A program made the position numbers and the translations under genes. Shown here piece after piece: positions 16,761-61,547 of a stretch of DNA of 64,000 nucleotides; position 1 is the stretch's first letter; each line of letters opens with the position of its first letter. This DNA comes from Candidatus Sysuiplasma superficiale. Lineage in GTDB: Archaea; Thermoplasmatota; Thermoplasmata; Sysuiplasmatales; Sysuiplasmataceae. The notes under the pieces were generated by a model. The model worked only from the letters and a program-made list of their open reading frames with translations, was not told the DNA's origin and made no database searches. Where the stretch lies: NCBI GenBank assembly GCA_019720975.1, contig JAGVSJ010000009.1:4065-68064 (forward strand). The letters run 5' to 3'.

Positions 16761-18152
16761 ATGCGTAAGCTGACAGATAGCTATTTCAAACAGACGAATA
16801 TAAGCAGATTAAGGGAAGAACTGGGTCATGAAATGCAAGCTGAAGAGAGGCAGAAACTGCTGAATTGGCTCTACAGCCTTGAAAATTTCGGGATCAAGCT
16901 TGGTCTCGAAAACATGAAGAAACTGCTTGACAGACTGGGAAATCCCCAGGAGAAGTACAGGACAGTGCATGTTGCCGGAACCAACGGCAAAGGATCCGTA
17001 TGTGCGCTAGTAGCGTCAATTCTCACCGCCGAAGGATATGTCACCGGACTGTATACATCACCTCACTTTGTTGATTTTGAAGAGAGGATCAAGATCAATG
17101 GTAAGTGCATATCTGAGGATGAGCTTGTGGAGTACGCCGGAAAGGTGAGAGGCGCCCTGTTTCAGATCTTCGGCGACAACAGCAGGGACATGACATTCTT
17201 CGAGATAACTACAGCCATTGCATTTCTCTACTTTGCAGAAAGAAATGTCGAGTTTGCGGTCATTGAAGTCGGGCTTGGAGGAAGGCTCGATGCAACCAAT
17301 GTGATAGTGCCCGAAGTTGCTGCAATCACTCATATCGCGCTCGAGCATACACAATACCTGGGAAATACTCTCACCTCAATAGCGTTCGAAAAGGGCGGGA
17401 TCATCAAAAAGAGAGTCCCTGTCATATCTGCCGAAACAAGGGCTGAGCCTCTCAATGAGCTGAAGCGCATCGCTTCGGTGAACGAGACCGTTCTGGAGGA
17501 CGCCCACAGATTGGTTGATATTGAGGTTATCGAAAAGGGACTCGGTCTGCTGAGATTCAACGCTTATGGCCTCGCAGAATACAGGAATCTGATGTGCCCG
17601 CTATGGGGAGCCTACCAGATACCCAACATAAAGCTGTCGATAGCGGCTGTTGAGAAACTGCAGCAGCTCGGTACATACATAAGCAATGGAGCTGTAACGA
17701 AAGGCGTATCAACAGTTTTCTGGCCCGGGAGATTGCAGCTGGCGGGGAGGGAGATGACATTCATATTTGATTCTGCGCACAATCCGGATGCCGCCCAAGC
17801 ACTAGCCGCTTCCATTCTTGAGGTCACAGACGAGAAGTTTCTTTGTGTCATAGGTGTTCTTTCAGACAAGAACCTCGATGGTATAATGGACAATCTCGTC
17901 AGCGTTTCAGATGGGTTCATATGCGCCTCACCATCCTCCTCACGATCAAGACCTGCTTCAGAACTCGTTGCCTCCGCAGTCAGAAGAGGTAAGATCGCAG
18001 TGGAAGCACCCGATGTTGGAGATGCAATGAGAATGGCGCTGGAGTCGGCCCGCGGGAGAAAGGTGATCGTCACAGGTTCTCTCAGAACAGTGGGCGAGGC
18101 GATGAAATGGTGGTCAGACACTTATGGCGAAAAACTCTGGAAGCAGGAATGA
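16761..18152 (+). CDS. folC: folylpolyglutamate synthase / dihydrofolate synthase (Mur ligase family)
   Basis: P-loop VHVAGTNGKGSV, FEITTAIAFLYF and the Mur-ligase C-terminal domain. An alternative start lies at ATG 16833. Confidence 0.8.
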   Translation: MRKLTDSYFKQTNISRLREELGHEMQAEERQKLLNWLYSLENFGIKLGLENMKKLLDRLGNPQEKYRTVHVAGTNGKGSVCALVASILTAEGYVTGLYTSPHFVDFEERIKINGKCISEDELVEYAGKVRGALFQIFGDNSRDMTFFEITTAIAFLYFAERNVEFAVIEVGLGGRLDATNVIVPEVAAITHIALEHTQYLGNTLTSIAFEKGGIIKKRVPVISAETRAEPLNELKRIASVNETVLEDAHRLVDIEVIEKGLGLLRFNAYGLAEYRNLMCPLWGAYQIPNIKLSIAAVEKLQQLGTYISNGAVTKGVSTVFWPGRLQLAGREMTFIFDSAHNPDAAQALAASILEVTDEKFLCVIGVLSDKNLDGIMDNLVSVSDGFICASPSSSRSRPASELVASAVRRGKIAVEAPDVGDAMRMALESARGRKVIVTGSLRTVGEAMKWWSDTYGEKLWKQE

Positions 18153-20730: not shown

Positions 20731-21510
20731 TCATCCTCCCATGACTGATGATTCATATCCTGCATCGGATACTGCCTTTGCAACATCTTCCGGCCTCAGT
20801 GTCTTTGGTATTCGGGCCGTAGCCTTCTTATCCTTCAGCGAAACCGAAGGAGACTCTGCACCAATACTCTCAAGTGTAGCCCTGACTGTAGTTGCGCAGC
20901 TTTCGCAGGTCATGCCCTCCACTCTCAGTGCAACGTCAACAAAGTCATCCCCTGAACCCGAGAGCCTGTTCGCGACATCAGTGAGTTTCAGCCTGAGATG
21001 AGGCTCTTTCACCTGCTTCAGGAATTTGTCGACTATACCCGGAAGATATTCCCTGCAACACTTACCGCTAGGATTGGTAACGAAACACCACTTTCCGGTC
21101 CCTGCTCTGGTGTATTCCTCTATGTCCTCAAGCGAATCGCAGCATCCCTTGCTGAGTATCTCCGTCTTTATTTCTTCCTCGGTGACGCCCATACAGTAAC
21201 AGACAGGCCTGGGAGAAGCCATTTCCTTCAGCGCGTATGGTGTTTTCACCTCGTCGTTGAAGAAATAAAGACCATCAGCGTTGCTGTAATAGATGACATT
21301 GCAGTCAGGCTCAGGTGAAAATCTGTAAGTATCGTCAACAAGTGACCAGTATCTTACGTCAACATGATTTCTCATTGTTGTTGGAAAGACCTTTGTGCCC
21401 TTTGTTCCGCAAACTAGGCAGTACTTATCTGCATTTGACCTGTCTCTCGATACAGCCTTCTCATATTCAGCGGATTCTGCAACCCTTTTTCCTTTGACAG
21501 ATTTCATCAT
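20731..21510 (-). CDS. CopZ-like metallochaperone: Cys-rich N-terminal domain plus C-terminal HMA domain
   Basis: C-terminal HMA fold with GMTCESC. Upstream are about 10 Cys (YCLVC, VCYCMGV, GCCDS, WC...GKCC), resembling the Zn/[2Fe-2S] N-domain of Archaeoglobus CopZ and BFD-like domains. The start is taken at ATG 21510 because the longer ORF (to 21711) would overlap the divergent regulator. Confidence 0.6.
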   Translation of the reverse strand: MMKSVKGKRVAESAEYEKAVSRDRSNADKYCLVCGTKGTKVFPTTMRNHVDVRYWSLVDDTYRFSPEPDCNVIYYSNADGLYFFNDEVKTPYALKEMASPRPVCYCMGVTEEEIKTEILSKGCCDSLEDIEEYTRAGTGKWCFVTNPSGKCCREYLPGIVDKFLKQVKEPHLRLKLTDVANRLSGSGDDFVDVALRVEGMTCESCATTVRATLESIGAESPSVSLKDKKATARIPKTLRPEDVAKAVSDAGYESSVMGG

Positions 21511-21672
21511 AAGTCTCACGGAAGCGTATGGGGACTGGAAGGTAATAAACAGTACAGTAAAAGATTTTATAGCTGATTCAGAGAGACGGAAGATCGTATG
21601 CATAGAGCTGGAGCGTAAGTGTGTGTATTGGGCCGGCGATTTTGAAATAATTGATCGGTTATTCCAATCAAT

Positions 21673-22062
21673 ATGGAACAGACTGACGGAAGAGCACGCA
21701 TGATAATCCAAAACGGGAAAGAAACATGCGCCCTACCGTCAGAGGGAATTCTAGGTATGCTGCGAAAGAAGTACAGTATACTTATAATTGGTCTTCTAAG
21801 AAACGAAAAGGAAATCAGATTCAACATGGCGCTTGAAGGCATAGGAAAGACGAGAGCCAACCGTCTTTCAATACGTCTCAGGAGACTAGAAACACTGGGA
21901 CTTATGGAGAGAAAGGTGGAACCATGGAGATCATTTTCATTTGAATATTCTCTGACCGCAAGAGGGTTGGATTCGGAGAACGTCATATTCCGCCATTCGA
22001 TTGAATTGAACATACCTGAATTTGGAGAATCGGCGCATTTTGCTGCGGGCAGGAAAATGTAA
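21673..22062 (+). CDS. HxlR-type winged-helix transcriptional regulator
   Basis: CALPSEGILGMLRKKYSILIIGLL...FEYSLTARG follows the HxlR/DUF24 wHTH pattern. It is divergent from the CopZ-like gene. Confidence 0.55.
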   Translation: MEQTDGRARMIIQNGKETCALPSEGILGMLRKKYSILIIGLLRNEKEIRFNMALEGIGKTRANRLSIRLRRLETLGLMERKVEPWRSFSFEYSLTARGLDSENVIFRHSIELNIPEFGESAHFAAGRKM

Positions 22063-34431: not shown

Positions 34432-34634
34432 AGGGAACAGGCACTGGGGATCGTGACTCGCATTCTCTTGAAGTGGAAGCTGACGGATCAGCATTCCTGC
34501 CTGCTCTTGTCTTTACCCCCTTCGATGGCGTCGTGACAGTGTTGGTGATCCTTGTTCTCCTGCTCCTGTTCATCATCTGGAGGAGGCGGAACAGAAGAAA
34601 GAATAGGGGGAATTCTGTCTATCTCTTCCATTAG
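34428..34634 (+). CDS. small single-TM protein
   Basis: ATG 34428 overlaps the methyltransferase stop (ATGA). 68 aa with one strongly hydrophobic helix followed by RRRNRRKNR. Confidence 0.3.
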   Translation: MKGTGTGDRDSHSLEVEADGSAFLPALVFTPFDGVVTVLVILVLLLLFIIWRRRNRRKNRGNSVYLFH

Positions 34635-35065
34635 AGCTGTGTGCCGTCTGAAAGCTCTTCCTGAATGAACTTGCCGCTGTCTGATAGGCGCCATGAACGC
34701 ATGCCAGCAGGTGAACCGTTCATAACACTGATTATGAAATATGAGTAGCCGGGCCAAGCGTTGTTTCTGTCAAACTCCGAGGGTACCGGCGGATGATCCG
34801 GATGGGAGTGGTAGTAGCCGAGTATCTTTTTGCCTGCGGAGTGTACTGACTGCTCCATTTTCAATATCTCACGGGGTTCAATGGTGTAGCGCGTTCTCTT
34901 TGAATTCGCAGCTGCATTCACGGCACGCACCGCGTCGCTGACAGTCCTGATGCCTCTTTTGGCATCCTCTGTTCCGATAAGGAAACCGCAGCATTCCTCG
35001 GGATATGTTTCGGATGCATGAACAATGATCTCCTTCAGGATGCTGGATTGCATTTGAAGCGACAT
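34631..35065 (-). CDS. JAMM/MPN+ metalloprotease (Mec+/desampylase-like)
   Basis: Complete JAMM signature: EECCG (catalytic Glu) and HSHPDHPPVPSEFD (HxH-x7-S-xx-D). It is the last gene of the suf/Ubl operon. Confidence 0.85.
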   Translation of the reverse strand: MSLQMQSSILKEIIVHASETYPEECCGFLIGTEDAKRGIRTVSDAVRAVNAAANSKRTRYTIEPREILKMEQSVHSAGKKILGYYHSHPDHPPVPSEFDRNNAWPGYSYFIISVMNGSPAGMRSWRLSDSGKFIQEELSDGTQL

Positions 35066-35100
35066 TGACTGTCTGCCCTCGGTTATGCCTGAAGGCGGAA

Positions 35101-36348
35101 TCAGGCAAATACCTTTCTGACCTCATCGAGTGCGTCGATAAGGGCATCAACATCCCTCTTCCCGTTGTAAAGATAGAAGGATGCGCGCGACGCTGATGAT
35201 ATTCCAAGCCTTTCCATCAGTGGTTGGGCACAGTGGTGTCCTGACCTGATGGAAACGCCCCTTCTTCCCAGTATTTCGGCAGTGTCATGCCCATGGACCC
35301 CTTTCAGGTTGAAGGCGATTACACCGCTCCTCTGCTCGATATCGTGTGGCCCGTATATCTCTATGTCATCTGATTCACCCAGGCGCGACAGCGCGTAGGA
35401 AATAAGATGCCTGTCGTATCTTTCAACATTCTCCATTCCAATGGCAGAGAGATAGTCCACCGCAGCCCCCAGACCGATTGCCCCTATTATGTTTGGCGTC
35501 CCGGCTTCGAATTTATATGGCGGCACATTCCACGTGCATCCGTTCTGGTGAACCTCACTTATCATTTCGCCGCCTCCAAGTGCCGGTTCAATCTTTCTGA
35601 GGAGATCGTACCTTCCATAAAGTGCACCAATGCCTGTAGGTGCCAGCATTTTGTGGCCCGAAAGTGCAAAGAAATCGCAGCCGATCTTCCTGACATCTAC
35701 TGGTATGTGTGGTGCCGACTGTGCTCCGTCCACAATCAGGAGGGATGAATTGTCATGAGCCATATCGGCTATTTCCCTTACCGGATTTATTGTACCGAGA
35801 ACGTTGGAAACATGAGCGACTGAAACTATCTTTGTCCTCCCCGTAAGCTTTGTGGCAAAATCGTCCATGTCAATCTGCCCCTCACTGTCGATATCTGCAA
35901 ACTTAAGCCTCACTCCCTTCCAAGAGAGCATCTGCCATGGGACAACGTTTGAATGATGTTCCATTACTGTGGTGAGCACCTCATCCCCCGGCTTGAGCTG
36001 CCAGATGCCCAGGCTCAGTGCAAGCACATTCAGCGCCTCTGTGGTGCCACGAAGGAATACGATCTCATCGGCAGATTCTGAATTGATGAAGCCCGCAACT
36101 TTCTTTCTCGCCCCTTCATAACGCTCGGTTGCATCCTCGCTGAGGGGGTAAATGCCGCGGTGGACATTCGCATTGTATTTTCTTTCAAACTCGCAAACAG
36201 CATCAATGACCTGCCTGGGCTTCTGGCTGGTGGCCGCACTGTCAAGATACACCAGTCCCTCCTTTCTCTCTGAAAAGATGGGGAAATCCGCCGCAAGCGG
36301 CGAAATGTCAGGCAGCGCATCAGGAAGCTTGGTGACCACTCGCATCAC
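35101..36348 (-). CDS. sufS: cysteine desulfurase, SufS type (class II)
   Basis: SGHKMLAPTGIGALYG (PLP Lys), RSGHHCAQPL (active-site Cys loop) and the overall SufS/CsdA pattern. Confidence 0.92.
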   Translation of the reverse strand: MMRVVTKLPDALPDISPLAADFPIFSERKEGLVYLDSAATSQKPRQVIDAVCEFERKYNANVHRGIYPLSEDATERYEGARKKVAGFINSESADEIVFLRGTTEALNVLALSLGIWQLKPGDEVLTTVMEHHSNVVPWQMLSWKGVRLKFADIDSEGQIDMDDFATKLTGRTKIVSVAHVSNVLGTINPVREIADMAHDNSSLLIVDGAQSAPHIPVDVRKIGCDFFALSGHKMLAPTGIGALYGRYDLLRKIEPALGGGEMISEVHQNGCTWNVPPYKFEAGTPNIIGAIGLGAAVDYLSAIGMENVERYDRHLISYALSRLGESDDIEIYGPHDIEQRSGVIAFNLKGVHGHDTAEILGRRGVSIRSGHHCAQPLMERLGISSASRASFYLYNGKRDVDALIDALDEVRKVFA

Positions 36349-36650
36349 ACATCCACATAAATTTCGTTGCCATCAACCCTTACACTGTATGTCCTGAGAG
36401 GTTCGGTTGCAGGAGGGTTTTCAACCTCGCCAGTCTCCACATTGAATCTGGAAAGATGAAGAGGACACACTATTGAATTGCCTGAGAGTATCCCTCTTGA
36501 AAGGTCGGCGTCCTCATGCGTGCAGGTCGAATCCAGCGCATGGAAGCTGTCACCGAGACGTATTATCATTATTTGGGAGCCGTCAATTTCAACCTTCCTC
36601 ACGTTGCCTGATGAGAAGTCTTCTGTCGAGGCAGCTCTCCTGAAGGTCAA
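36345..36650 (-). CDS. Rieske [2Fe-2S] ferredoxin-like protein
   Basis: CTHEDADL...CPLH (CxH...CxxH). TTG start 6 nt after the sufD stop. Its stop overlaps the sufS start. Confidence 0.85.
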   Translation of the reverse strand: MTFRRAASTEDFSSGNVRKVEIDGSQIMIIRLGDSFHALDSTCTHEDADLSRGILSGNSIVCPLHLSRFNVETGEVENPPATEPLRTYSVRVDGNEIYVDV

Positions 36651-36656
36651 GGATCA

Positions 36657-38099
36657 TCACCTGTACTTGTAGTGGCCTTCGAAGATATTCTCACCAGGGG
36701 ACTTTATCTGATCTTTGACATATTTTTCGAATTCGAGCTCATCGAGATGGCGCGACGACTGTATCGAAATCGCATTATTCCACTTGTCCTCTATCTGGAA
36801 GCGCAACTTGTCACGTACCGCATCTATTGGTATCCTTGAAATTACAGGATCGAAGAAACCAAGGACAAGGAGTTTTTCCGCATCGTTCCTTTCTATCCCT
36901 CTGGTCTGAAGGTAGTAAAGCTGCTGTTCATCCATCTGGGAAACGGAGGCTGAATGTGTTGCCTTCACACCGTTTGTGAGTATCTCCAGCCCGGGTATCG
37001 CATCGCATTTTGAGTCCCTGCTCAACAGCATCCCGTGTTCAGCAAGGTAAGCGCTGGTATTGGATGCCTTTTCGCCTATCCTTATCATTCCGCGCAGGAG
37101 TGCCCTCGATCTGTCGCGCAGAACGCTTCTGACAGTGACCCTTCCACTTGTAGACTCCACATTGTGGTGCAGGTCTGTGACAATGTCAAACTTCTGTTTG
37201 CCTCCCGAAAAGAGTATTTCGTAATCATCTGTGGAAGCTCCCTGGCCCTCAAAATCTGTGTCAGACCTTGCCCTTGTTATGTCACCACCCATATAGCTTG
37301 AGACCCAGTGCATCCTGCTCTCACGCATTGCAATGGCACGTTTGTTTGAAAGATAGACAGTCCCAGCCGAGAGATTCTCAAGTGAAGCGTGATGCAGTTC
37401 AGCACCATGGGAAAGGTGGACGTCGGTTACGGAAGAGTAAAGGGACAGGCCGCTGACACCCTCCTCAGAATATATCTCTTCGATGACATTCGCGCTGCTT
37501 CCTTCCTCCAGACGAACTATGTTCTGGTGGAAGCCCGCCTTCCCCGCACCATTTTCTATGTATACCACATGAACTGGTGCTTCCAGATGCGTGTTTCTTG
37601 GAACATAGAGGAAATAGCCTGAGGTGAAGAAGGCGTTGTTCAGTGCAACGTATATGTCATCCTCCGGCTTAAGGCCCTTAAGCCTGAAGGATTCTTCTGC
37701 AATGTCGGCATGTTTTGCCACAGCATCCTTCATCTCCTCAAAAATGACGCCGCGTGGAAGAGATTTTGACCGGTAGAACGCACCACCATAGTGTATCATG
37801 AAGATACTCTTTCCCTCCTCACCCGCAAGCTCCACATACCTTTCCGGCACGGCTGGTAACTCCGAAGGCACTTTCGCGGGCGTGAGTCCGGAGGCGTCGA
37901 ATCTGGTAAGTGACTCATACTTTGTGTACAGTGGATTCGGTTCAGGCCTTGACTGGCGGAAAACAGCAAGGGAGCGTCTCCTGTACTCAGAAAGCCATGC
38001 GGGTTCCATGTTGAATGAGGGGAGCTCGGATTCTCCCGTGTTCATTATGTCCTGTGTCATTGCTGTCATGGCAGACTGGCACCTCCTTCGAAATTTCAC
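36657..38099 (-). CDS. sufD: Fe-S cluster assembly protein SufD
   Basis: SufB/SufD beta-helix family, lacking the SufB N-terminal Cys region. The GTG start overlaps the sufB stop (GTGA). Confidence 0.85.
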
Positions 38100-39502
38100 C
38101 CTACTGAACCTGTCATCTCAAGCTGTATAAGCCTATTCAGCTCCACCGCGTACTCCATTGGCAATTCCTTCGAGAAGACATCGAGAAAACCCATGACTAT
38201 CATGTTGAGAGCGTCTGCTTCCGTGAGTCCCCTTGACATGAGGTAGAAAAGCTGTTCCTCGCTTATCTTGCCTACAGTTGCCTCATGCGTGGTTGAGGCT
38301 GTCTCCTCATTGATTGTATTGTACGGATAAGTGTCGGTCCTCGACTTTTCATCAAGCAGGAGGGCGTCGCACCTAACACTGCTCTTTGAGTTGTGTGCAC
38401 CTTTTTCAATGTGCAGAAGGCCACGGTAGGTAGTCCTGCCTCCATCCTTGCTCACGCTCTTCGATGTTATTCTCGATGTTGTTTCAGGCGCAAAATGCAG
38501 TATCTTCGCGCCTGCATCCTGATGCTGCCCTCTACCTGCAAATGCAATTGAAATGACCTCACCCTTGGCTCTCGGTCCGAGGAGATACACGGAAGGGTAT
38601 TTCATTGTCAGCTTCGAACCGATGTTGCCATCTATCCACTCCACCGTTGCATCTTCGTGTGCGAACGCCCTCTTTGTTACCAGGTTATAGACATTGTTTG
38701 ACCAGTTCTGAATGGTTGTGTAGCGAACATACGCTCCCTTCTTCGCTATAATCTCCACAACAGCAGAGTGCAGTGAGTCCTTCGAATAGATGGGTGCGGT
38801 GCACCCTTCGATGTAATGTATCCGACTGTTCTTCTCCGCAACTATCAGTGTCCTCTCGAACTGACCTACACTCTTGGCATTGATTCTGAAATAGGCCTGG
38901 AGAGGGATGTCAACCTCAACACCTTCCGGGACGTAGATGAAGCTCCCACCGCTCCAGACGGCGCTGTTTAGTGCTGCGAATTTGTTGTCCTCGGGCGGAA
39001 TAACAGTGCCGAAATGCTCTCTGAATATGTCAGGGTATTCCTTGAGACCTTCATCCGTCCCAAGGAATATGACGCCCTTCTTGCTGAGATCCTCTCTTAT
39101 CTTATGATATACCACTTCGCTGTCATACTGTGCCCCGACTCCGCCGAGGAATTTCTTCTCTGCCTCAGGTATACCCAGCTTGTCGAATGTCCTCTTGACA
39201 TAGTCAGGAACATCCTCCCAGCTGTCGCTGTTCTTGCCTGAAGGGGCCATGTAATAGTAAATGTCATTGAAATCAATTTCCTTCAGATCGCTTCCCCATG
39301 GCGGAAGAGGCTTCCTGTTGAAAATATCCAGCGATCGGAGTCTGAAATCCCTCATCCACTCCGGTTCCTTCTTGTATCTGGATATGGCTTCCACAACATC
39401 TCTGCTGAGCCCTTTCTGTGTCTGAAACACGTATTTGGCATCCTCATCGTAGAAGCCATACCTGCTGTAGTCACGGTCTATTCCCTGTTCATTCATCACC
39501 AT
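38096..39502 (-). CDS. sufB: Fe-S cluster assembly scaffold SufB
   Basis: Strong SufB pattern ([34 protein letters not shown]...[27 protein letters not shown]). The ORF is open to 39523. ATG 39502 is preceded by AGAGGAAGTGAT. Confidence 0.93.
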
Positions 39503-39553
39503 TTTATCACTTCCTCTTAACATTCATCAAATAGTTCACCTTCATCATTGAAA

Positions 39554-40975
39554 TCAGTAGCGCGGCATTGATGCGTCGACCTTCTCGGCCCATGCATTTA
39601 TACCTCCCTTCAGATTCTTGACCTTTCTGAAGCCTATGTCCTTCAGAAAATTCACGGCATATGCGCTTCTCTGGCCGACCTTGCAGTAGAGTACTATCTC
39701 GTCTGCGGTGTTGAGTTCGTTCACTCTTGCCGGTATATCATTCAGGGGTATCAGCCTGGCTCCCTCTATCCTGCATATGTCCCATTCCTGCGGTTCACGG
39801 ACATCCACCAAAACGATGTTCTCCCCGCTCTTCAGGCGTTTTGCCAGTTCCTCCGCGGTTATTGAGTTCTCATCGTTCTCCCTTTCCGGAGTTATTCCGC
39901 AGAACTGCTCGTAATCAATCAGTTCATGTATTGTCGGCTTCGTGCCACACACTGGGCAGTCAGGATTCTTGCGGAGCTTGAGCTCCTTGAAGCGCATCTT
40001 CATAGCATCGAAGAGCAGCAGCCTCCCTATCAGCGGTTCACCTTCACCGAGTATGAGCTTTATTGCCTCCATTGCCTGCAGTGTGCCGATGGTGCCGGGC
40101 AGTACGCCGACAACACCTCCCTCAGCACACGAAGGCACAAGCCCCGGCGGTGGCGGATTCTCGTAAAGGCACCTGTAGCAGGGCCCTCTCTTTGCGTCAA
40201 AGACAGAAACCTGGCCCTCAAAACGGTATATTGAGCCGTAAACGTTCGGTTTACCCAGCAGGACACATGCATCGTTCACAAGATAGCGTGTCGGGAAATT
40301 GTCTGTTCCGTCAATCACTATATCATACTGTCTTATGATGTCAAGTGCGTTTTCAGATGTCAGCCTGGTTTCGTGCTTGACAACCTGTATGTTGTGGTTT
40401 ATCTCTTTGATCTTCTCTTCTGCAGAATCTATCTTTTTTCTCCCGACGTCCTTCTGCGAATGAATGATCTGCCTCTGCAGGTTGCTGAAATCAACGGTAT
40501 CGAAATCGACTATGCCGAGTGTGCCCACGCCTGCTGCTGCAAGGTAAAGCAGAAGGGGTGAACCCAGTCCGCCTGCTCCAATTACGAGCACTTTCGCCTT
40601 TCTAAGTTTCAGTTGCCCTCCAAGGCCGACCTCAGGAAGCAGGAGATGCCTGCTGTAGCGCTGTATGTCTTCATATGTGAAATCATTTTCAAGGGTGCTC
40701 GAACCGCCCGCAATGGAGGGTATTATTGATATCACATCCCCCTCCTTTACGGCCGTCTTTTCCCTCTCAAGGTACCGTATATCCTCCTCGTTCAGGTACA
40801 CATTCACAAAATTCCTCATTTTTCCGTTTTCATCAAACAGATGGCGCTTCAGCTGAACGCTTGTATCCGCCACTTTGCGCAGGACTTCGTCTACAGATTC
40901 GCCATCAACAACAATCGTATCGCTGTTTCCGACGTATTGTCTAAGGGGTGTCGGTATCATCACCTTAACTTTCAC
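39554..40975 (-). CDS. fusion protein: MoaD/CysO-like beta-grasp (ends ...IPSIAGG) + MoeB/ThiF-type E1 adenylyltransferase + rhodanese
   Basis: Residues 1-91 (VKVKVMIPTPLRQYVG...VNVYLNEEDI...KEGDVISIIPSIAGG) fit the archaeal MoaD/SAMP/CysO pattern with a di-glycine at 90-91 (codons 40703-40708). Next comes RYSRHLLLPEVG, VLVIGAGGLGS, CYRC...SCAEGGVVG...CPVCG (E1), followed by the rhodanese loop CKVGQRS. GTG 40975 is preceded by GGGAGG at 7-nt spacing and overlaps the cysM stop (GTGA). The ORF-track extension to 41077 runs through cysM and is discounted. Confidence 0.85.
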   Translation of the reverse strand: MKVKVMIPTPLRQYVGNSDTIVVDGESVDEVLRKVADTSVQLKRHLFDENGKMRNFVNVYLNEEDIRYLEREKTAVKEGDVISIIPSIAGGSSTLENDFTYEDIQRYSRHLLLPEVGLGGQLKLRKAKVLVIGAGGLGSPLLLYLAAAGVGTLGIVDFDTVDFSNLQRQIIHSQKDVGRKKIDSAEEKIKEINHNIQVVKHETRLTSENALDIIRQYDIVIDGTDNFPTRYLVNDACVLLGKPNVYGSIYRFEGQVSVFDAKRGPCYRCLYENPPPPGLVPSCAEGGVVGVLPGTIGTLQAMEAIKLILGEGEPLIGRLLLFDAMKMRFKELKLRKNPDCPVCGTKPTIHELIDYEQFCGITPERENDENSITAEELAKRLKSGENIVLVDVREPQEWDICRIEGARLIPLNDIPARVNELNTADEIVLYCKVGQRSAYAVNFLKDIGFRKVKNLKGGINAWAEKVDASMPRY

Positions 40976-41904
40976 AGATTCGCCTCCCAAAACCTCTCTC
41001 CAAGGTAGCGCTGCCCACTGTCGGGGAAAACAGTGACCACACTGCACTTTCCCTCCCTCCTGAAAATATCTTCGCAAGCCTTCAATGCGGCTCCGGAACT
41101 CACGCCGAGGAGCAGCCCTTCCTTCCTTGCAGCCGTGATCACCATTCTCTGTGCATCCTCTGTCTTCACATAGATGTGCTCGTCCGCAAGCGTCTCATCG
41201 TAAATGCCGGGCCTTATTGATGAATCCATTCTCTTCAGTCCCTCTATGCCGTGAAGAGGGCTGTCGGGCTCAACAGCCACTGCAGTCAGAGAGGGGATCT
41301 TCTCCTTGAGAAATTTTGCTGTGCCTGTGAACGTGCCTCCTGTTCCAACACCGGCAACGAAATAGTCTATTTTGCCACCGGTCTGCCTGAGTATTTCCTG
41401 ACCTGTTCCGTCATAATGTGCCCTCCAGTTGCTGCTGTTGTTGTATTGGTCTGCATAGTAGTACATGCCCGGATTTTCATCATCAAGCTTTTTCGCTAGT
41501 CTCTGAGCGCCATCGGTCCCCTCCATCGGATCACTGAGAACAACCTCTGCGCCGTACGCCCTCAGCATTTCAAGCTTTTCCTTGCCTATGTTTCGCGGAA
41601 CCACGATGCAGGACCTTATGCCCTTTACCGCACAGATCATCGCGTATGCAATGCCCGTGTTCCCGGATGATGCATCCAGCAAAATCTTCCCGTCCGAAAG
41701 GGAGCCTCTGCGCAGTGCATCTTCGATTATCCTGAGCGCTGCCCTATCCTTCACACTGCCACCGGGATTGAACCATTCTGCCTTTGCATAGAGCTCAGCT
41801 CCGCCCTGCAGTTCCATAATCCTCCCGAGTCTGAGAAGCGGTGTGTTACCTATCTTCGAGAGTATGTCTTCGCCGTACTGCGACTTCAGTTCAGTGCATA
41901 TCAT
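40972..41904 (-). CDS. cysM: CysM-type cysteine synthase / O-phosphoserine sulfhydrylase (PLP fold type II)
   Basis: GNTPLL, PGGSVKDR (PLP Lys), SSGNTG and GVGTGGTFTG. The region QYNNSSNWRAHYDGTGQEI and the loop VEPDSPLHGIEGLKRM align by eye with M. tuberculosis CysM rather than CysK. Confidence 0.8.
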   Translation of the reverse strand: MICTELKSQYGEDILSKIGNTPLLRLGRIMELQGGAELYAKAEWFNPGGSVKDRAALRIIEDALRRGSLSDGKILLDASSGNTGIAYAMICAVKGIRSCIVVPRNIGKEKLEMLRAYGAEVVLSDPMEGTDGAQRLAKKLDDENPGMYYYADQYNNSSNWRAHYDGTGQEILRQTGGKIDYFVAGVGTGGTFTGTAKFLKEKIPSLTAVAVEPDSPLHGIEGLKRMDSSIRPGIYDETLADEHIYVKTEDAQRMVITAARKEGLLLGVSSGAALKACEDIFRREGKCSVVTVFPDSGQRYLGERFWEANL

Positions 41905-42280
41905 TTTTCACGCCTCCGGCAGAGACCGTCTCCTGGAGTGTTTTGAGCGAAAGAGTAGCGCATTTCATCCTCACAGCACTGAGCGGTATATGGAGCATTT
42001 CCTTCACATAATCGGGTGAGAGCCTCTCTATTTCTTCCAACTTCATTCCCTTTATCCTGTCCGTGAGCATTGAAGCGGAGGCCTGGCTTATAGCACATCC
42101 GCGTCCGTCGAACGATACATCCTCGATTATGTCATTTTTTATCTTTAGGTAAATCGTTATGTCGTCACCGCACACAGGATTGTTTCCGTGCCCGAAGAGA
42201 TCGGGATGATCCATCGCCCCCTTATTGTGAGGGCTTTTGTAATGCTCGATTATTTCCTCCTGATAGATGTCGAATCCCAT
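41891..42280 (-). CDS. sufU: SufU/IscU-family (NifU N-terminal domain) sulfur-transfer/scaffold protein
   Basis: Three conserved Cys in NPVCGD, GCAIS and RMKCATLS. Lys rather than His precedes the third Cys, as in SufU. It lacks the long Bacillus SufU insertion. Confidence 0.8.
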   Translation of the reverse strand: MGFDIYQEEIIEHYKSPHNKGAMDHPDLFGHGNNPVCGDDITIYLKIKNDIIEDVSFDGRGCAISQASASMLTDRIKGMKLEEIERLSPDYVKEMLHIPLSAVRMKCATLSLKTLQETVSAGGVKNDMH

Positions 42281-42293
42281 TTTTACACTCCAT

Positions 42294-43058
42294 TCAGTTT
42301 GTCAACTCAGGTTCTCTTAGCCAGTCATATCCCTTCTCCTCAAGTTCCCTGGCGAGTTCCTTTCCTCCGCTCTTCACAATCCTTCCGTCAACCACGACAT
42401 GAACAAATTGCGGCGTGATGTACTGGAGAAGCCTCTGATAATGTGTGACAAGTATGAGGCCGATGTTCGGACCCGCCATCGAGTTTATTGCTGTTGCAAC
42501 TATCTTCAGGGAGTCAATATCCAGGCCGCTGTCTGTCTCGTCCAGTATACCGAACTTTGGCTGGAGTATGGCCATCTGCAGAACCTCAGCCCGTTTCTTT
42601 TCACCGCCGGAAAAGCCCTCATTGAGTGACCGGCCAATGAAATTTTCATCAATGCCGAGCTGATTGACCTTTTCTTTCAGAAGTTTGAAAAATTTAGTCG
42701 GGCTGAGAGGTGAGTTCGGATGTGAACTGTTGTACGCTATCCTGAGGAAATTGCCCAGTCTTACGCCTGGTACCTCTACAGGGTACTGAAAGCCCAAGAA
42801 AAGGCCCGCACGTGCCCTCTTGTCAGCTGTCAATGAGAGTACGTCCTGCCCATCAAGGAGCACCTGCCCTCCGGTGATCTGGTATTTGGGATGTCCCATG
42901 AGCGCATAGCTCATTGTGCTTTTTCCAGAACCGTTGGGGCCCATGATCGCATGGATTTCACCCTGCCTGACTGTGAGATTTATGCCCTTAAGTATCTGTT
43001 TGCCCTCTATACTTACCTTGAGATCTCTGATAACCAGTTCCGATGTCATTGTATTCAT
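42294..43058 (-). CDS. sufC: Fe-S cluster assembly ATPase SufC
   Basis: Walker A GPNGSGKST, signature FSGGEKKR, Walker B ILDETDSGLD and the SufC-typical HYQRLL. Confidence 0.93.
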   Translation of the reverse strand: MNTMTSELVIRDLKVSIEGKQILKGINLTVRQGEIHAIMGPNGSGKSTMSYALMGHPKYQITGGQVLLDGQDVLSLTADKRARAGLFLGFQYPVEVPGVRLGNFLRIAYNSSHPNSPLSPTKFFKLLKEKVNQLGIDENFIGRSLNEGFSGGEKKRAEVLQMAILQPKFGILDETDSGLDIDSLKIVATAINSMAGPNIGLILVTHYQRLLQYITPQFVHVVVDGRIVKSGGKELARELEEKGYDWLREPELTN

Positions 43059-43107: not shown

Positions 43108-43123
43108 GATATTTAAACATATC
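43108..43123. promoter_or_regulatory. palindrome overlapping the candidate sufC TATA box
   Basis: GATAT-TTAAAC-ATATC has perfect 5-bp arms. On the minus strand it contains TTTAAATA about 55 nt upstream of the sufC ATG. It lies in the sufC/regulator divergent intergenic region. Confidence 0.3.
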
Positions 43124-43158
43124 TTAGTGTCTAAATTGCATAAATTTAATATAGGAAC

Positions 43159-43815
43159 ATGATGGTATATTACCTGACAACGATGGAAAAGGAGCTCTCC
43201 CTTCTAGGTGAATCAAAAACTAAACTGATCACCCTTCTGGGTGAAGGAGAGAAATCCGGACAGGAGCTCGCAAGGCTCATGGGTATCAATACAACGGCCA
43301 TAAGGGAGCATACCGATACACTGGAAAGACTGGGCCTAGTATCTTCAAGGTTTGTTCATCTCGGGGTCGGAAGGCCAAAAAAGATGTATAGGCTGACACC
43401 GGCAGGAATTGAACTCCTGCCAAAGCACTATGATGAACTTCTCAATCTTCTGCTCAGAAAGATTCATGACAAAGGCGGTAACATACTCCTGAGCCAGCTA
43501 ATATCGGATGTTGTTAGGGAGTTCAAGTCCGAGTGTGATGAATGTCAGTCCGAGACGCTGGAAAAGCGCATTGAAAACGCTGTAAACTTCCTCAACAAAC
43601 TTGGGTTCATGGCCACGGTTGAAAGGGACGGGGGTAAAACGTTTGTAGTAAGGCATAACTGCATTTTCAACAAGACGGCGAAGCTGTATTCGGGAATACT
43701 GTGCAGCGAATGTGATACATCTTTTGTGAAGGAACCAATAGGGAGCTCAAATATTGAGCTTATCTCCTGCATAGGAAAGGGGGACACATCCTGCAGGAAT
43801 CTTATAAAATCCTAG
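43159..43815 (+). CDS. SufR-like (COG2345/ArsR-type) wHTH regulator with Cys-rich C-terminal domain
   Basis: wHTH with GRPKKMYRLTPAG..LLPKHY, typical of COG2345 regulators such as cyanobacterial/actinobacterial SufR. The C-terminal domain carries five Cys (HNC, CSEC, SC, SC). It is divergent from sufC. Confidence 0.6.
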   Translation: MMVYYLTTMEKELSLLGESKTKLITLLGEGEKSGQELARLMGINTTAIREHTDTLERLGLVSSRFVHLGVGRPKKMYRLTPAGIELLPKHYDELLNLLLRKIHDKGGNILLSQLISDVVREFKSECDECQSETLEKRIENAVNFLNKLGFMATVERDGGKTFVVRHNCIFNKTAKLYSGILCSECDTSFVKEPIGSSNIELISCIGKGDTSCRNLIKS

Positions 43816-43890: not shown

Positions 43891-44904
43891 TTGCCTGTGA
43901 TGAAGATAATCCTGTTCAAGATTTGCGTTGTCTTTCTCATAGCTGTGCTTGTTTTGCCTGCACTTACATCAGCGGTTGCACGCGCGGACAATGGCCAGCA
44001 GGACAGGGAAGTGTCTATCCAAACATCTGATAACGGTTATTTCCAGATAGTCTCCAAGCTGCCTGGGCAACCCGGAAATCAGTTTGATCTGCAGTTCGCA
44101 GAAAATACGCTTCTTATGACTTTCAGCAATGGTTCTGATCAGCAGAATGCATCGCTCGAGTTTGCCATAACACTGGATAAACTGATATACACCAATGGCA
44201 CAGGTTCAAACTCAACGCTGATTTCGTTTGAGGATGCCGGCTTCACACTCATGAGCGGCACAATGCTTGCCCCCTATGTCTCCACCTTCAGCAGATCCGT
44301 TTTTGGTGTCATTTCAGAGGCGAAGGGAACAGTCTTCATAATGATAATACAGGTGAATGGAAAGCCTGTCCAGGTTATGTCCCCAGTAGTCAACAAACCT
44401 GTTGAACTCTATCCAAATCAGGTGAAGATTTCCTTCATAATACAGAACGCAGGTATGCCGCAGATACAGTCCGGTACCTATATGAACCAGCAGCCTCCGA
44501 ACATGTTTACCGCAGGCAATATTTCGCTTCTGATGACACTGAGTTCACCCTCAGGATTTCCGGTTCTTTACCAGTCTGCGTCTTCCGTTCAGCTGAATTT
44601 CACTGAGGAAAACAGCACAGGTTATTTCGAATGGAGCCGCAGCGCGTATGTCTATAGCAGCCTTACCCAGAGTGTGTCAGAAAGAAATGTCCTTTTCTCG
44701 CTTGACAAGAGCAGGCTCACACTTGTCTATCCGGCGGCCCAGAGAATAGTTCATGATCCCGTCATCGGCATTTCCCCACAGTCCCTCATAGGCGGAGTGG
44801 TGAACGCGGTGAAGACTGCCGGAAACATAATAATATACAGTATTGCACTGACACTTGCTGCCGTTCTGGTTGCAGGCTCCGTGCTCTACAGACGGAAGCA
44901 CTGA
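43891..44904 (+). CDS. secreted protein with C-terminal membrane anchor
   Basis: N-terminal signal-like helix ending ALTSAVARA and a C-terminal TM followed by RRKH. The start is TTG 43891 or ATG 43900. Confidence 0.45.
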   Translation: MPVMKIILFKICVVFLIAVLVLPALTSAVARADNGQQDREVSIQTSDNGYFQIVSKLPGQPGNQFDLQFAENTLLMTFSNGSDQQNASLEFAITLDKLIYTNGTGSNSTLISFEDAGFTLMSGTMLAPYVSTFSRSVFGVISEAKGTVFIMIIQVNGKPVQVMSPVVNKPVELYPNQVKISFIIQNAGMPQIQSGTYMNQQPPNMFTAGNISLLMTLSSPSGFPVLYQSASSVQLNFTEENSTGYFEWSRSAYVYSSLTQSVSERNVLFSLDKSRLTLVYPAAQRIVHDPVIGISPQSLIGGVVNAVKTAGNIIIYSIALTLAAVLVAGSVLYRRKH

Positions 44905-44928
44905 ATACGGAAGGCAGAATGTGGCATC

Positions 44929-45210
44929 ATGTCGTTTCTGAGCTTCATTACACTGCAGAATTTCGTCGCAGCATGGGTTACTGTGATAGCTTTCGTTCTC
45001 TTCACAATATCCATTCTTGCTCTCAGGAAGAGCGGTAATTCAAGAATAGCAATGATTGCCGGTGCCTTTCTTCTCTTCTTCTTAGAGGGTCTCATATTCA
45101 CGTACCAGCTTTTTGCGGAGTACTTCGCTCTGCCGGTTTTCTTTGTTATTGTGGGTTTGATTGACATAGCAATACTGCTGCTCATTTTTGGCGCGACACT
45201 GATGAGATAG
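44929..45210 (+). CDS. small three-TM membrane protein
   Basis: 93-aa hydrophobic ORF between the secreted protein and the regulator. Confidence 0.4.
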   Translation: MSFLSFITLQNFVAAWVTVIAFVLFTISILALRKSGNSRIAMIAGAFLLFFLEGLIFTYQLFAEYFALPVFFVIVGLIDIAILLLIFGATLMR

Positions 45211-45221
45211 AGCGTGGTCTG

Positions 45222-45770
45222 ATGGATGAGATCCTCGAGCTGCAGACTAGAAAGAGGATTTATGATGAAGTCTGCAACTTTCCCGGTCTACATCTCCGCG
45301 AGCTTTCAAGGCAGCTCAACGAAAGCGTCCCACTAATAGACTATCATCTCAACTTTCTTGAAAAGCATGGGATTGTCACTGCCATCAATGACGGTCAGTT
45401 TAAAAGGTACTATCCAAGGGATCCTGTTGGTTCCGGCATCAAAACTGACACACTTTCAGCCGAAGAGAAGAGGATGGTTGCATTGCTCAGACAGAAGATA
45501 CCTCTTCAGATAATACTTTTCCTTCTGAAGAACGGCTCAGCCCAGCACAAAGACATGCTCCCCATGATGAATGTGTCCGCTTCAACACTCTCGCATCATC
45601 TGAATAAACTCGTGAGGAGGGGTATCGTAACCAAAACAGAATCGGGAAAGGAGAGGGGATACAGGCTCGCGAACGAAACACAGATGGCTAGGCTGCTCCT
45701 GCACTACCAGCCTCCCCCTGGAACAATTGTGGACAGCTTCATTGAAATATGGGAGGAGCTGAGGCAGTAG
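45222..45770 (+). CDS. tandem winged-helix (ArsR-like) transcriptional regulator
   Basis: Two wHTH units (GLHLRELSRQLNESVPLIDYHLNFLEKHGIV and AQHKDMLPMMNVSASTLSHHLNKLVRRGIV). Confidence 0.65.
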   Translation: MDEILELQTRKRIYDEVCNFPGLHLRELSRQLNESVPLIDYHLNFLEKHGIVTAINDGQFKRYYPRDPVGSGIKTDTLSAEEKRMVALLRQKIPLQIILFLLKNGSAQHKDMLPMMNVSASTLSHHLNKLVRRGIVTKTESGKERGYRLANETQMARLLLHYQPPPGTIVDSFIEIWEELRQ

Positions 45771-59037: not shown

Positions 59038-59913
59038 ATGGATCCGGGAGAGAAGACTCAGCTCAGGGATTTCGTAGTGTCGATCTCTGCCGCCGCACTA
59101 ATCGCGTTGCTCATAATAGGTGGCCTTTATGTCTACGCTGGCAACTGGCCGCCCATGGTGGTGGTGGAATCTGGCAGCATGCAACACAGTTCAACCTACG
59201 CATATCTGGGTGACCTCAACATAGGAGACATGGTGGTTGTGAAAAGGGTCTCTTCCGTTTCCCAGATAGTAACATACGTCCAGGGGGCGGAGAGTCATTT
59301 CTCAACCTATGGAGAGTTCGGAAACGTCATAATATACAAACCGTACGGAAGCAGCAACGTAGTCCCGATAATACACAGAGCCATAGTTTATATACAGTAC
59401 AACAAAACCGGAGGTGGATACAACATACCTTCACTTGCCGGCCTCAACGATTCTGAATGGTTTGTCATGACGCCTTCAGGGCCAGAACACTATGTTAACA
59501 ACATAATGTACAACGTTGAACTGACAAATGTGGGTTACACCCATACGCCTGTGATAATTCCTGTCAAACAGATGATCAGAAGTGCCAGATTCAGTGGCTT
59601 CATTACAATGGGGGATCACAATCATGCAGCCTATGGAGAGAATGCGACGGATCAGGCTCTTGGAATATTTCCGCTTCCTGTGAAGATCCAGTGGGTTGAA
59701 GGAATAGCCGTCGGCCTTCTCCCATATGTTGGCCTCATAAAACTGTACTTTGATGGTGGCATACCTGCCGAAACGCCTCAGAACAGCGTAGTTGCCCTCG
59801 TCGTGATCATAGTGGCTGTTGCGGCCACCATATTCTCGGCAGAATACATTCTAGAAACACTCAGAAGGAGGAAAGAGGGAGAGGGCGATCAGGAAAACAG
59901 AGAGTCAGATTAG
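59038..59913 (+). CDS. archaeal signal peptidase I (S26B/Sec11-like)
   Basis: N-terminal TM, VVESGSMQHS (catalytic Ser) and MGDHN (His), then a C-terminal TM. TATA-like GATTAAAAACATATA lies about 25-35 nt upstream of ATG 59038. Confidence 0.7.
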   Translation: MDPGEKTQLRDFVVSISAAALIALLIIGGLYVYAGNWPPMVVVESGSMQHSSTYAYLGDLNIGDMVVVKRVSSVSQIVTYVQGAESHFSTYGEFGNVIIYKPYGSSNVVPIIHRAIVYIQYNKTGGGYNIPSLAGLNDSEWFVMTPSGPEHYVNNIMYNVELTNVGYTHTPVIIPVKQMIRSARFSGFITMGDHNHAAYGENATDQALGIFPLPVKIQWVEGIAVGLLPYVGLIKLYFDGGIPAETPQNSVVALVVIIVAVAATIFSAEYILETLRRRKEGEGDQENRESD

Positions 59914-61167
59914 TGTCGTCTGTACCCTTGCATGCGAAGTTCTGTAGGATTTCAGCAGTTCATCCCCCGCAAGGATGTCCCTTGTTTCGTTAATCGGCAC
60001 AGCAAGTTCTACCTCCTTGGTTCTTCCACCACGACCGAATGAACGGACCCTTGCCCTGAGTATTCCGAGCATGTCCAGTTCTGACAGAAGATCACCTATC
60101 CTGCGCTGTGTCAGAGGCTGAACGCCTACAGAGTTGCATAGATTTCTGTACACTTCATACACATCTCCTGTTGTCATCATACTGCGCTTTTCAGAGTGTA
60201 TTATGATAGACATCAGCAGGATCTTGGACTGATAGGGAAGTGTTCTTAGCGTCTCTGAAACGGTGTCAAGCTCTATCTTTTCCTTCGCTCTGTATACATC
60301 TGCCGCCGTGATCTTTGTCCGTCTCTCTCTTTCGGCAGATTCTCCAGCAACGCGAAGGAGCTCAAGCGCTCTTCTGGCATCGCCGTGTTCTTGTGCAGCT
60401 AGTGCGGAGCAGAGCGGTATGACATCCTCATCGAGTACACCCTCTTGGAAAACAAGCCCCGCGCGATCGCGTAGTATGTCTGAGAGTTCACCTGCATTGT
60501 ATGGAGAAAACACTATTCTCTCCTCTCCGAGCCTGCTCCTGACACGAGCGTCGAGGAAATCGGTGAACTTCAGATCGTTCGCAATGCCAATGATTGAGAG
60601 TTTTGAATTCTTCAGGTCATCATTGATCCTCGAAAGATTATAGAGAAGATCGTCGCCCGCCTTGTACACCAGCCTGTCAAGTTCATCAAGAACAACCACA
60701 ACCAGCCTTCCGAGCTGTTCTGTCTTTTCCTTGAACAGGGTATATATTCTCTCCATGCTCCACCCATTATATGGGGCACGCTCCTCAGGATTGGTGATGA
60801 AGCTATTTACCATGTACTGCACGACACCATAATTGGTGTCGGCTTCGCAACAGTTGACGTAGAGAAACTCTATCTTCCTTTCTCTGGTCATTCTGGAAGC
60901 TTCATTTGAAATGAACCTGACAGTCGCTGTTTTGCCTGTTCCCGTCTTACCAAAAACAAGAACGTTTGATGGTCTGTCCCCGTTAAGACCGATGGAAATA
61001 ATTGCTGCTAGCTGATCTATTTCCCTCTCACGGTGAGGAAGAGAGGATGGTATGTAGGACGGGCGGAGTATCTCTCTGTTGCTTCTGAAAATAGTTGGCG
61101 AGCAGACATACCTGTCAAAGATGTTTGGTCTCGGTTGATGGGCATTAACTGCAGACTGTTCAGTCAT
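59905..61167 (-). CDS. cdc6: Orc1/Cdc6 replication initiator
   Basis: AAA+ Walker A FGKTGTGKTAT, Walker B VVVVLDELD and a C-terminal winged helix. The ORF is open to 61227. Confidence 0.9.
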   Translation of the reverse strand: MTEQSAVNAHQPRPNIFDRYVCSPTIFRSNREILRPSYIPSSLPHREREIDQLAAIISIGLNGDRPSNVLVFGKTGTGKTATVRFISNEASRMTRERKIEFLYVNCCEADTNYGVVQYMVNSFITNPEERAPYNGWSMERIYTLFKEKTEQLGRLVVVVLDELDRLVYKAGDDLLYNLSRINDDLKNSKLSIIGIANDLKFTDFLDARVRSRLGEERIVFSPYNAGELSDILRDRAGLVFQEGVLDEDVIPLCSALAAQEHGDARRALELLRVAGESAERERRTKITAADVYRAKEKIELDTVSETLRTLPYQSKILLMSIIIHSEKRSMMTTGDVYEVYRNLCNSVGVQPLTQRRIGDLLSELDMLGILRARVRSFGRGGRTKEVELAVPINETRDILAGDELLKSYRTSHARVQTTLI

Positions 61168-61355
61168 TGAGAAACCATATCTCCCACCTATTTTCAAGAG
61201 GTAAAGGTAGGGTAAAATTTCACCCATACTAAAACGTTCTTTTTATCTCATAATTCGAGTAAATAAAACACACTTACATCACACAAATCCATTAATGGTT
61301 CCTTCTCGATGCATAAATGGAAATATATATAAATAATAATAATCAACAATAGAGA

Positions 61356-61374
61356 GTCCATGATTTCCACTGGA
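61356..61374. repeat. ORB-like origin recognition box, copy 1
   Basis: GTCCATGATTTCCACTGGA is the perfect reverse complement of 61529-61547. It contains the TCCAGTGGAAA core of archaeal ORB/mini-ORB elements. Confidence 0.7.
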
Positions 61375-61528: not shown

Positions 61529-61547
61529 GTCCAGTGGAAATCATGGA
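61529..61547. repeat. ORB-like origin recognition box, copy 2 (inverted)
   Basis: TCCAGTGGAAATCATGGAC, 154 bp from copy 1. Confidence 0.7.

Follow-up and report, generated by a model that had tools for sequence, protein, structure and literature searches.

The 64,000-nucleotide stretch analysed here (hereafter the window), from contig JAGVSJ010000009.1 of the archaeon Candidatus Sysuiplasma superficiale, contains a SUF gene cluster for iron-sulfur (Fe-S) assembly, into which a module for ubiquitin-like sulfur transfer and cysteine synthesis is interleaved. Nine minus-strand open reading frames (ORFs) occupy positions 34631–43058 in the 5′ to 3′ order sufC, sufU, a cysM-like gene, a gene for a fusion of a CysO-like ubiquitin-like (Ubl) domain with an E1 and a rhodanese domain (CysO::E1::rhodanese), sufB, sufD, a Rieske gene, sufS and a JAMM peptidase gene; a regulator gene is divergent. 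The original prediction, made from the sequence and its translated ORFs, had described nine tightly packed genes with a carrier and cysteine module inside a SUF operon. All nine were recovered at their earlier coordinates and junctions (from sufC to JAMM: gap of 13 nt, overlaps of 14 and 4 nt, gap of 30 nt, overlap of 4 nt, gap of 6 nt, overlap of 4 nt and gap of 35 nt). Each gene identity was confirmed with Pfam and NCBIfam, and the gene order upheld the interleaving. All nine genes are intact, with their catalytic residues in place.

By the NCBIfam family cut-offs the SUF set is complete. The matches exceeded the thresholds for SufC, the Fe-S assembly ATPase (42294–43058; TIGR01978, 340.9 bits against a cut-off of 212.8), for SufB (38096–39523; TIGR01980, 714.7 against 346.4), for SufD (36657–38099; TIGR01981, 236.9 against 222), for SufS, a type II cysteine desulfurase (35101–36348; TIGR01979, 554 against 475.1), and for the U-type sulfur-transfer or scaffold protein SufU (41891–42280; TIGR01994, 119.8 against 92.5; NifU_N, 103.9 bits). 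The TIGR01994 match of SufU is restricted to the N-terminal two thirds of the model; inspection of the protein sequence revealed the ligand pattern Cys37/Asp39/Cys62/Cys107, with a lysine preceding the last cysteine. The start of SufB is more likely Met8 (position 39502), where a Shine-Dalgarno-like sequence is found; the protein would then have 468 residues, similar to the 461–467 of its relatives, and the gap to the preceding gene would be about 51 nt. The small Rieske [2Fe-2S] ferredoxin (36345–36650; PF00355, 65 bits) has its CxH...CxxH ligands.

The fourth gene (39554–40975) encodes a 473-residue protein matching ThiS (42.5 bits), ThiF (290 bits) and Rhodanese (79.7 bits). The ORF list starts it at 41077; its true start is the GTG at 40975, which forms a GTGA overlap with the stop codon of cysM and has GGGAGG 8 nt upstream, whereas NCBI places the start at the ATG at 40960. 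Residues 1–91 (40703–40975) form the Ubl domain, which ends in PSIAGG. Among the solved structures of the Protein Data Bank (PDB), it best matches the CysO proteins of Amycolatopsis orientalis (4n6e_B, 56.6 bits) and Mycobacterium tuberculosis (3dwg_C, 54.9 bits), whereas MoaD-type proteins scored only 29–31 bits. The alignments with the two CysO proteins run end to end and stop exactly at their native C-terminal Gly-Gly. These alignments bear out the earlier description of the domain as CysO-like, and by them it is a CysO orthologue. In the remainder of the protein, the GxGGxG glycines, two CxxC pairs and Cys283 of the E1 domain are invariant, as is the active-site Cys431 of the rhodanese domain (39557–39868; motif CKVGQRS), where C431, G434, R436 and S437 are all invariant among 60 sequences. 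Against the MoeZ equivalog NF005902 the fusion scored 527 bits, under the cut-off of 647; of the MoeB models, NF006444 was passed (492 against 449) and NF005646 was not (536 against 633). The three-domain architecture is common to all 120 best database matches listed, and the fusion is encoded in at least 593 metagenome stretches.

The Gly-Gly of the fusion is internal, with a linker and the E1 domain after it. Across 121 sequences, A89, G90 and G91 of the PSIAGG motif are invariant; the linker that follows shows no sequence conservation and varies from about 5 to 25 residues across the family, before an invariant RYSRHL opens the E1 domain. In the window the linker comprises residues 92–99 (40679–40702). 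An AlphaFold2 model of the fusion (mean pLDDT 85.2) contained three confident domains, with pLDDT below 50 at residues 88–95 (the Gly-Gly and linker), at residues 282–287 (the loop with Cys283), in the linker between the E1 and rhodanese domains and, briefly, at residues 110–112; such a model displays folded domains and low-confidence linkers and says nothing on cleavage. An E1 adenylates only a free C-terminal carboxylate. The fused CysO could thus serve as a carrier only after a cut behind Gly91. The obvious candidate for this cut is the neighbouring JAMM peptidase, which probably severs the fusion there; the maturation of HcyS by HcyD, that of QbsE by QbsD and the cleavage of MoaX are precedents. 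This Mec-like JAMM/Prok-JAB metallopeptidase (34631–35065; Prok-JAB, 91.3 bits) retains, on inspection, an intact E24...H86-S-H88-x7-S96-x2-D99 motif; its best PDB match was 2kcq (88.9 bits), and Pyrococcus JAMM1 scored only 34 bits. No other free carrier was identified in the window: among ORFs of at least 55 codons, the sole candidate ending in Gly-Gly was a CopZ/HMA metal-binding protein, not an Ubl. That protein (20731–21711, minus strand) combines CopZ-type zinc-binding, BFD-like [2Fe-2S] and heavy-metal-associated domains.

The divergent gene (43183–43815, plus strand; listed start 43159) encodes a winged helix-turn-helix (wHTH) regulator whose C-terminal domain is rich in cysteine; the protein matches HTH_5/PadR and TIGR02702. 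Its start is probably Met9 (43183), giving 210 residues, with an equivalent start residue in every relative. The five cysteines of its C-terminal domain (C-X13-C-X2-C-X18-C-X7-C) are invariant in all relatives, and every relative of the interleaved type has the gene next to the cluster in divergent orientation. The SufR-like assignment made earlier was too firm: besides this position and a SufR-like layout of the wHTH and C-terminal cysteines, it has in its favour a weak full-length match to the SufR_cyano model TIGR02702 (52.2 bits), which falls below the cut-off of 178.8. We consider the protein probably an Fe-S-sensing, SufR-like repressor. Beyond it, at 43891–45770, lie genes for a 337-residue predicted membrane or secreted protein with no Pfam match, a 93-residue ORF and a 182-residue double-HTH regulator (HTH_5, HVO_0163_N), and genes of similar size and matching Pfam profile occupy the equivalent position in three related loci (L002, L108 and L109). 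This three-gene block may belong to the regulatory unit of the operon.

Between sufC and the regulator gene lies a putative divergent promoter/operator block (43110–43153). In it, TTTAAATA (43110–43117, minus strand) faces sufC and TTAATATA (43146–43153, plus strand) faces the regulator, and a core, TGCAATTTAGACAsTAAGATATG, is conserved between them. This block of about 45 nt is nearly invariant in seven lineages, whose regulators are only 50–69% identical. The motif TTTAWATA occurs once between 34.6 and 43.2 kb, in this block upstream of sufC, and the coding strand of the cluster contains no T6 tract. Predicted hairpin terminators and sigma-70 promoters were not clearly more numerous than in shuffled sequences, in a scan that does not model archaeal promoters. 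At the Rfam gathering thresholds no riboswitch or other RNA element was detected in or near the operon, the sole match being a tRNA-Gly at 18884. The arrangement fits a single transcript from one conserved TATA/operator block.

We compared the cluster with related loci (numbered with the prefix L). The linkage to suf genes recurs in Thermoplasmata-type relatives: the nine-gene interleaved order, together with the divergent regulator and the flanks, was present in seven loci (L002–L006, L108 and L109), and an eighth (L018) has it up to sufB, the last gene before the end of that contig. Together with the window they make up six Thermoplasmata-type lineages of metagenome-assembled genomes, five of them additional to it. 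In these relatives, genes overlap by 1–4 nt at the sufU/cysM, cysM/fusion and sufS/JAB junctions. Since the same order and flanking synteny are found in independent contigs whose fusions are 74–82% identical, the arrangement is not due to chance. The interleaved form is confined to this one archaeal clade.

In a second archaeal clade the module is appended, in the order sufB-C-D-NifU-(sufB-like)-sufS-sufU-cysM-JAB-fusion (L007, L032, L112, L113 and L114), and in L008 sufC-sufS-sufU-cysM-JAB-fusion lies opposite sufC-B-D-Rieske. The Rieske gene follows sufD on its 3′ side in L008, as it does in every interleaved-type locus extending that far. Other Thermoplasmata and Aciduliprofundum (L110 and L111) carry a plain sufC-B-D-S-U operon without the module; the earlier statement that archaeal SUF systems are usually minimal thus fails in this phylum. 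The fusion of the window is 61–63% identical to those of the appended clade and 62–67% identical to those of bacteria, values that do not separate a single transfer from multiple ones. An insertion of about 2.3–2.4 kb parts JAB from the fusion in two appended loci (L114, 6660–8855; L007, 6180–8520), suggesting that the module tolerates splitting. In L114 the insertion holds three unrelated genes on the reverse strand, one of them for an aldo-keto reductase and another for a DUF998 protein, and in L007 the ORFs in the gap had no Pfam matches. In four appended loci the fusion is followed by genes for a conserved helical protein of about 105 residues without a Pfam match and a DUF1684 protein (L112, 13541–14495; L113, 10502–11431; L114, 10503–11427; L007, 10023–10948). 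The former was rejected as a second carrier, being helical and having a C-terminus other than Gly-Gly; it recalls an uncharacterised helical protein of actinobacterial CysO operons (PMC1779556).

Most bacterial loci contain a stand-alone cysM-JAB-fusion (L001, L009, L107 and most of L027–L106). Where enough upstream sequence was available, the fusion was accompanied by cysM in 44 of 48 loci and by JAB in 47, which points to cysteine as the normal product of the module. In 8 of the 34 loci with sufficient downstream sequence (L059, L042, L052, L065, L066, L082, L086 and L096), the first 4 kb downstream of the fusion include a gene resembling cysteine desulfurases, in most cases with a U-type scaffold gene after it. 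In L059, where the genes of 4978–13241 were checked with Pfam, the module is directly upstream of a complete Rrf2/IscR-iscS-iscU-iscA-hscB-hscA set. The fusions of these eight ISC-adjacent loci are 71–82% identical to one another, and the loci may accordingly be a single clade. In acidobacterial metagenome-assembled genomes (L012, 9965–18600; also L011 and L013) MoeZ is unfused; its neighbours are an Rrf2 regulator, an IscS-like gene, an A-type carrier and sufBCDSU, and neither cysM nor JAB is close by. These results show that the module has become linked to Fe-S biogenesis repeatedly, in several independent forms.

As the favoured explanation, to which we assign a probability of about 0.58, we propose that one operon under a divergent repressor co-expresses the cysteine-dependent SUF system with bacterial-type thiocarboxylate-dependent cysteine synthesis, and so couples cysteine supply to cluster assembly. 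The JAMM peptidase would cut the CysO::E1::rhodanese polyprotein after Gly91, releasing CysO with a free Gly-Gly terminus; the E1 domain would adenylate it, and the rhodanese persulfide would convert it to CysO-thiocarboxylate. Thiocarboxylate formation by an E1/rhodanese is established for MoeZ/CysO and Uba4/MOCS3. CysM would then join the thiocarboxylate to an activated serine (O-phosphoserine or O-acetylserine) and, after an S-to-N acyl shift, the same JAMM would free L-cysteine, steps that are established in M. tuberculosis. SufS would draw sulfur from that cysteine and pass it through SufU to SufBCD, with the Rieske protein probably supplying electrons. As a net result, cysteine supply and cluster assembly would be switched on jointly. 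The reading draws its support from the near-obligate cysM and JAB partners, from the identity of the Ubl domain with CysO and from the one conserved putative promoter for suf and module genes. SUF is a stress-robust Fe-S system. Oxidative stress in M. tuberculosis induces genes of sulfur metabolism and cysteine synthesis, and CysM aids survival under it (PMC11361707), in support of the same explanation.

This scheme departs from the original prediction, in which the SufS persulfide could regenerate the cysteine that SufS consumes. Sulfur cannot both feed clusters and return to cysteine, and a loop from SufS through the carrier to cysteine would be futile, as by the established stoichiometries it would amount to the conversion of O-phosphoserine and ATP to alanine, Pi, AMP and PPi with no gain of sulfur. 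A net gain of cysteine requires that the rhodanese sulfur not derive from cysteine itself but, for instance, from sulfide, thiosulfate or sulfane sulfur.

Several points weigh against the favoured explanation. One concerns the CysM-like PLP beta-replacement enzyme (40972–41904; PALP, 236.9 bits; TIGR01138 cysM, 329 bits, below the cut-off of 394). The enzyme retains the PLP lysine, the SGNTG loop and the family motif HG[LI]EGLK[HR]M; its earlier assignment as a CysM-type PLP enzyme holds at the level of the PALP/cysM family, in which E. coli CysM is its closer relative and the O-phosphoserine-specific enzyme of M. tuberculosis the more distant one. Its best solved relatives are the E. coli and Salmonella CysM proteins (225 bits), against 170 bits for M. 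tuberculosis CysM. We aligned the M. tuberculosis sequence, checked against 3dwg_A, with 62 module-linked CysMs. The O-phosphoserine-binding Arg220 is replaced by lysine in the window and in 61 of the 62 sequences, the residue after this lysine being usually His and, in the window, Arg; the C-terminal tail of the M. tuberculosis enzyme is missing from both the family and the window. These features mark a distinct CysM subfamily, and with an enzyme closer to that of E. coli the use of thiocarboxylate and O-phosphoserine cannot be read from the sequence. The JAMM cleavage of the fusion and the single transcript are likewise predictions from sequence. In addition, sulfide, thiosulfate and sulfane sulfur are candidates for the rhodanese donor, and the adjacency to SufS or IscS fits equally well with a desulfurase feeding the rhodanese. 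Finally, our view is that of a 64-kb window, and further cysteine pathways may be encoded elsewhere in the genome.

The adjacency to SufS or IscS underlies the main alternative, which we regard as possible, if rather doubtful: a branching relay, in which SufS, possibly via SufU, feeds the rhodanese-E1, and the thiocarboxylate serves thiolations that yield no net cysteine, for example tRNA 2-thiouridine formation, molybdenum cofactor (Moco) synthesis or persulfide salvage, with CysM perhaps using mainly free sulfide. In Thermus thermophilus, SufS and IscS supply TtuB-COSH via the rhodanese TtuD. Several arrangements, independent of one another, place the module or an unfused MoeZ beside a desulfurase, which is SufS in archaea, IscS in bacteria and an IscS-like protein in Acidobacteria. 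It has also been argued that a desulfurase donates sulfur to MoeZR, which serves MoaD as well, with human MOCS3 cited in support (PMC3227635). However, the cysM and JAB partnership given above speaks for cysteine as the product, and a loop is futile if its sulfur derives from cysteine. Furthermore, the cluster and the Pfam-scanned proteins of the window include neither a tRNA-thiolation gene (TtuA/NcsA) nor moaE.

We see only a slim chance that the thiocarboxylate is itself an Fe-S intermediate, with CysO-COSH donating sulfur directly to SufU/SufBCD or, in bacteria, to IscU. In this reading the rhodanese-E1 would make CysO-COSH with sulfur obtained either from the environment, as sulfide or sulfane sulfur, or through SufS/SufU. 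If true, it would constitute an oxidation-protected route into clusters by way of a ubiquitin-like carrier, and the SUF and ISC linkage would reflect a shared mechanism instead of mere substrate supply. In a weaker version, the loci may point to SufS or IscS as the long-sought physiological donor of MoeZ-type enzymes.

It is unlikely, and in our estimate markedly so, that the genes are co-located without coupling, a horizontally acquired MoaD-MoeB-rhodanese gene for Moco synthesis and a cysteine synthase gene having landed in the suf operon by chance. NCBI does name the fusion MoeB (molybdopterin-synthase adenylyltransferase), in keeping with the passed NF006444 model, and a 2024 survey of archaeal fusions places it under Moco biosynthesis and proposes a transfer from Acidobacteria (PMC11237513). 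An accidental placement or a pure Moco role is nevertheless disfavoured by the CysO identity of the Ubl domain (55–57 bits against the 29–31 bits of MoaD-type proteins), by its constant partners and by the recurring linkage. The partners are cysM and JAB, not moaE, moaA or moaC; these three turned up neither in the cluster nor among the Pfam-scanned window proteins nor among the called genes of the related loci checked. The Fe-S linkage comes in at least four gene orders in two domains of life, and the interleaved order has been held, with translational coupling, across 74–82% protein identity.

Attachment of the released Ubl to Suf or other proteins in the manner of SAMP, with JAMM as a deconjugase, had been raised in the original prediction and has a parts list resembling SAMP/UbaA/JAMM1 in its favour; we consider it very improbable, given that the haloarchaeal models stayed below their cut-offs (UbaA NF047750, 357.9 against 450; SAMP1 NF041918, 50.2 against 60; desampylase NF041370, 97.1 against 130), that the E1 is joined to a rhodanese domain, as is common in sulfur-transfer enzymes, that no E2 or E3 is present, and that the module is of the bacterial CysO/CysM type with a cysteine synthase nearly always present. 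Membership in a bacterial Ubl-conjugation defence system (CBASS Cap2/Cap3 and the like) was likewise rejected: the PADLOC E1-E2 models reached at most 61 bits over residues ~27–274, chiefly on the Rossmann core at ~120–250, with no E2, and the PADLOC JAB models matched the JAMM peptidase weakly, with at most 40 bits.

The genes flanking the cluster are archaeal housekeeping genes, among them those for PriS primase, diphthamide synthase, QueC/D/E, ThyX, aminoacyl-tRNA synthetases, TiaS and Orc1/Cdc6. The Orc1/Cdc6 gene (59905–61227, minus strand) adjoins an AT-rich intergenic region of 860 nt (window 59905–62087 for the two together). A pair of 27-nt inverted repeats (61348–61374 and 61530–61556), with the core TCCAGTGGAAATCATGGACT, surrounds a 155-nt spacer there; the repeats resemble origin recognition boxes, making this a candidate replication origin. 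At 16761–18152, on the plus strand, a Mur-ligase-family protein (Mur_ligase_M, Mur_ligase_C) is encoded beside an HhH-GPD glycosylase and a tRNA-Gly gene.

Every component of the cluster belongs to a known family, and both the stand-alone module and the fusion have been catalogued. The Mec(+)-CysO-CysM system of M. tuberculosis, together with MoeZ, has four activities in common with the cluster: a CysO Ubl, an E1 with rhodanese, a PLP-dependent CysM and a JAMM peptidase. It differs in that CysO is here translated in fusion with its own E1-rhodanese, that CysM is of another subfamily and that the module genes are dispersed in a suf operon instead of forming an operon of their own. The same component set constitutes neighbourhood class 4c, defined by ThiS/MoaD, E1-rhodanese, JAB and cysteine synthase (Iyer, Burroughs & Aravind 2006, PMC1779556), to which the stand-alone bacterial cysM-JAB-fusion loci belong. 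In that paper the Ubl is a separate gene, and the class is connected neither with SufS or IscS nor with Fe-S assembly; SufS/SufE are unmentioned. The term ‘Suf’ is absent from Makarova and Koonin 2010 (PMC2948915), and a 2026 review of Fe-S sulfur sources (PMC13066941) mentions neither thiocarboxylates, CysO nor rhodanese. The open-access literature that we searched held no description of suf or isc linkage with CysO, MoeZ or JAMM, which is not proof of absence, and no characterised operon of this architecture, in agreement with what had been stated at the outset.

Apparently new are the conserved position of the module within SUF operons and its wider association with SUF and ISC, as well as the identification of the widespread ‘MoeB’ fusions as CysO::MoeZ polyproteins, probably needing maturation by JAMM. 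The loci provide genetic evidence, from two domains of life, for a coupling of thiocarboxylate-dependent cysteine synthesis to Fe-S assembly, to SUF in Thermoplasmata-type archaea and to ISC in a bacterial clade. They narrow the question of the physiological donor of the MoeZ-type rhodanese-E1 to testable candidates in the same operon, and they indicate that archaeal fusions routinely annotated ‘MoeB’ belong with cysteine synthesis, not with Moco. If JAMM does free the Ubl, the fusion would be a prokaryotic parallel to a ubiquitin fusion precursor matured by a deubiquitinase.

The SUF part itself is closest to the plain sufC-B-D-S-U operons of Thermoplasmata and Aciduliprofundum, with which it shares SufBCD, the type II SufS (57% identical) and SufU. 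Those operons, without cysM, CysO::E1, JAMM and Rieske genes, resemble the SufS-SufU SUF operons of Gram-positive bacteria. The SufR-controlled suf operons of actinobacteria and cyanobacteria have a wHTH regulator with C-terminal cysteines and, in some cases, a Rieske gene. They share with our cluster the divergent or leading wHTH gene and the Rieske protein, whereas the promoter here is of the archaeal TATA type and the regulator is distant. In the Wolinella HcyS/HcyD/HcyF-MetY and Pseudomonas QbsE/QbsD systems, the Gly-Gly is masked by a C-terminal extension, which a JAMM removes before adenylation. MoaX of M. tuberculosis is another carrier that needs C-terminal processing (PMC3227635, PMC11237513). 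In contrast to these three, where the extension amounts to one or two residues or to MoaE, the masking extension here is a whole E1-rhodanese of 380 residues. The Haloferax SAMP/UbaA/JAMM1 system is likewise archaeal and combines an Ubl, an E1 and a JAMM under a dual sulfur-carrier logic; our cluster differs from it in that the E1 bears a rhodanese domain, the system is of the bacterial CysO type and the haloarchaeal family models score below their cut-offs.

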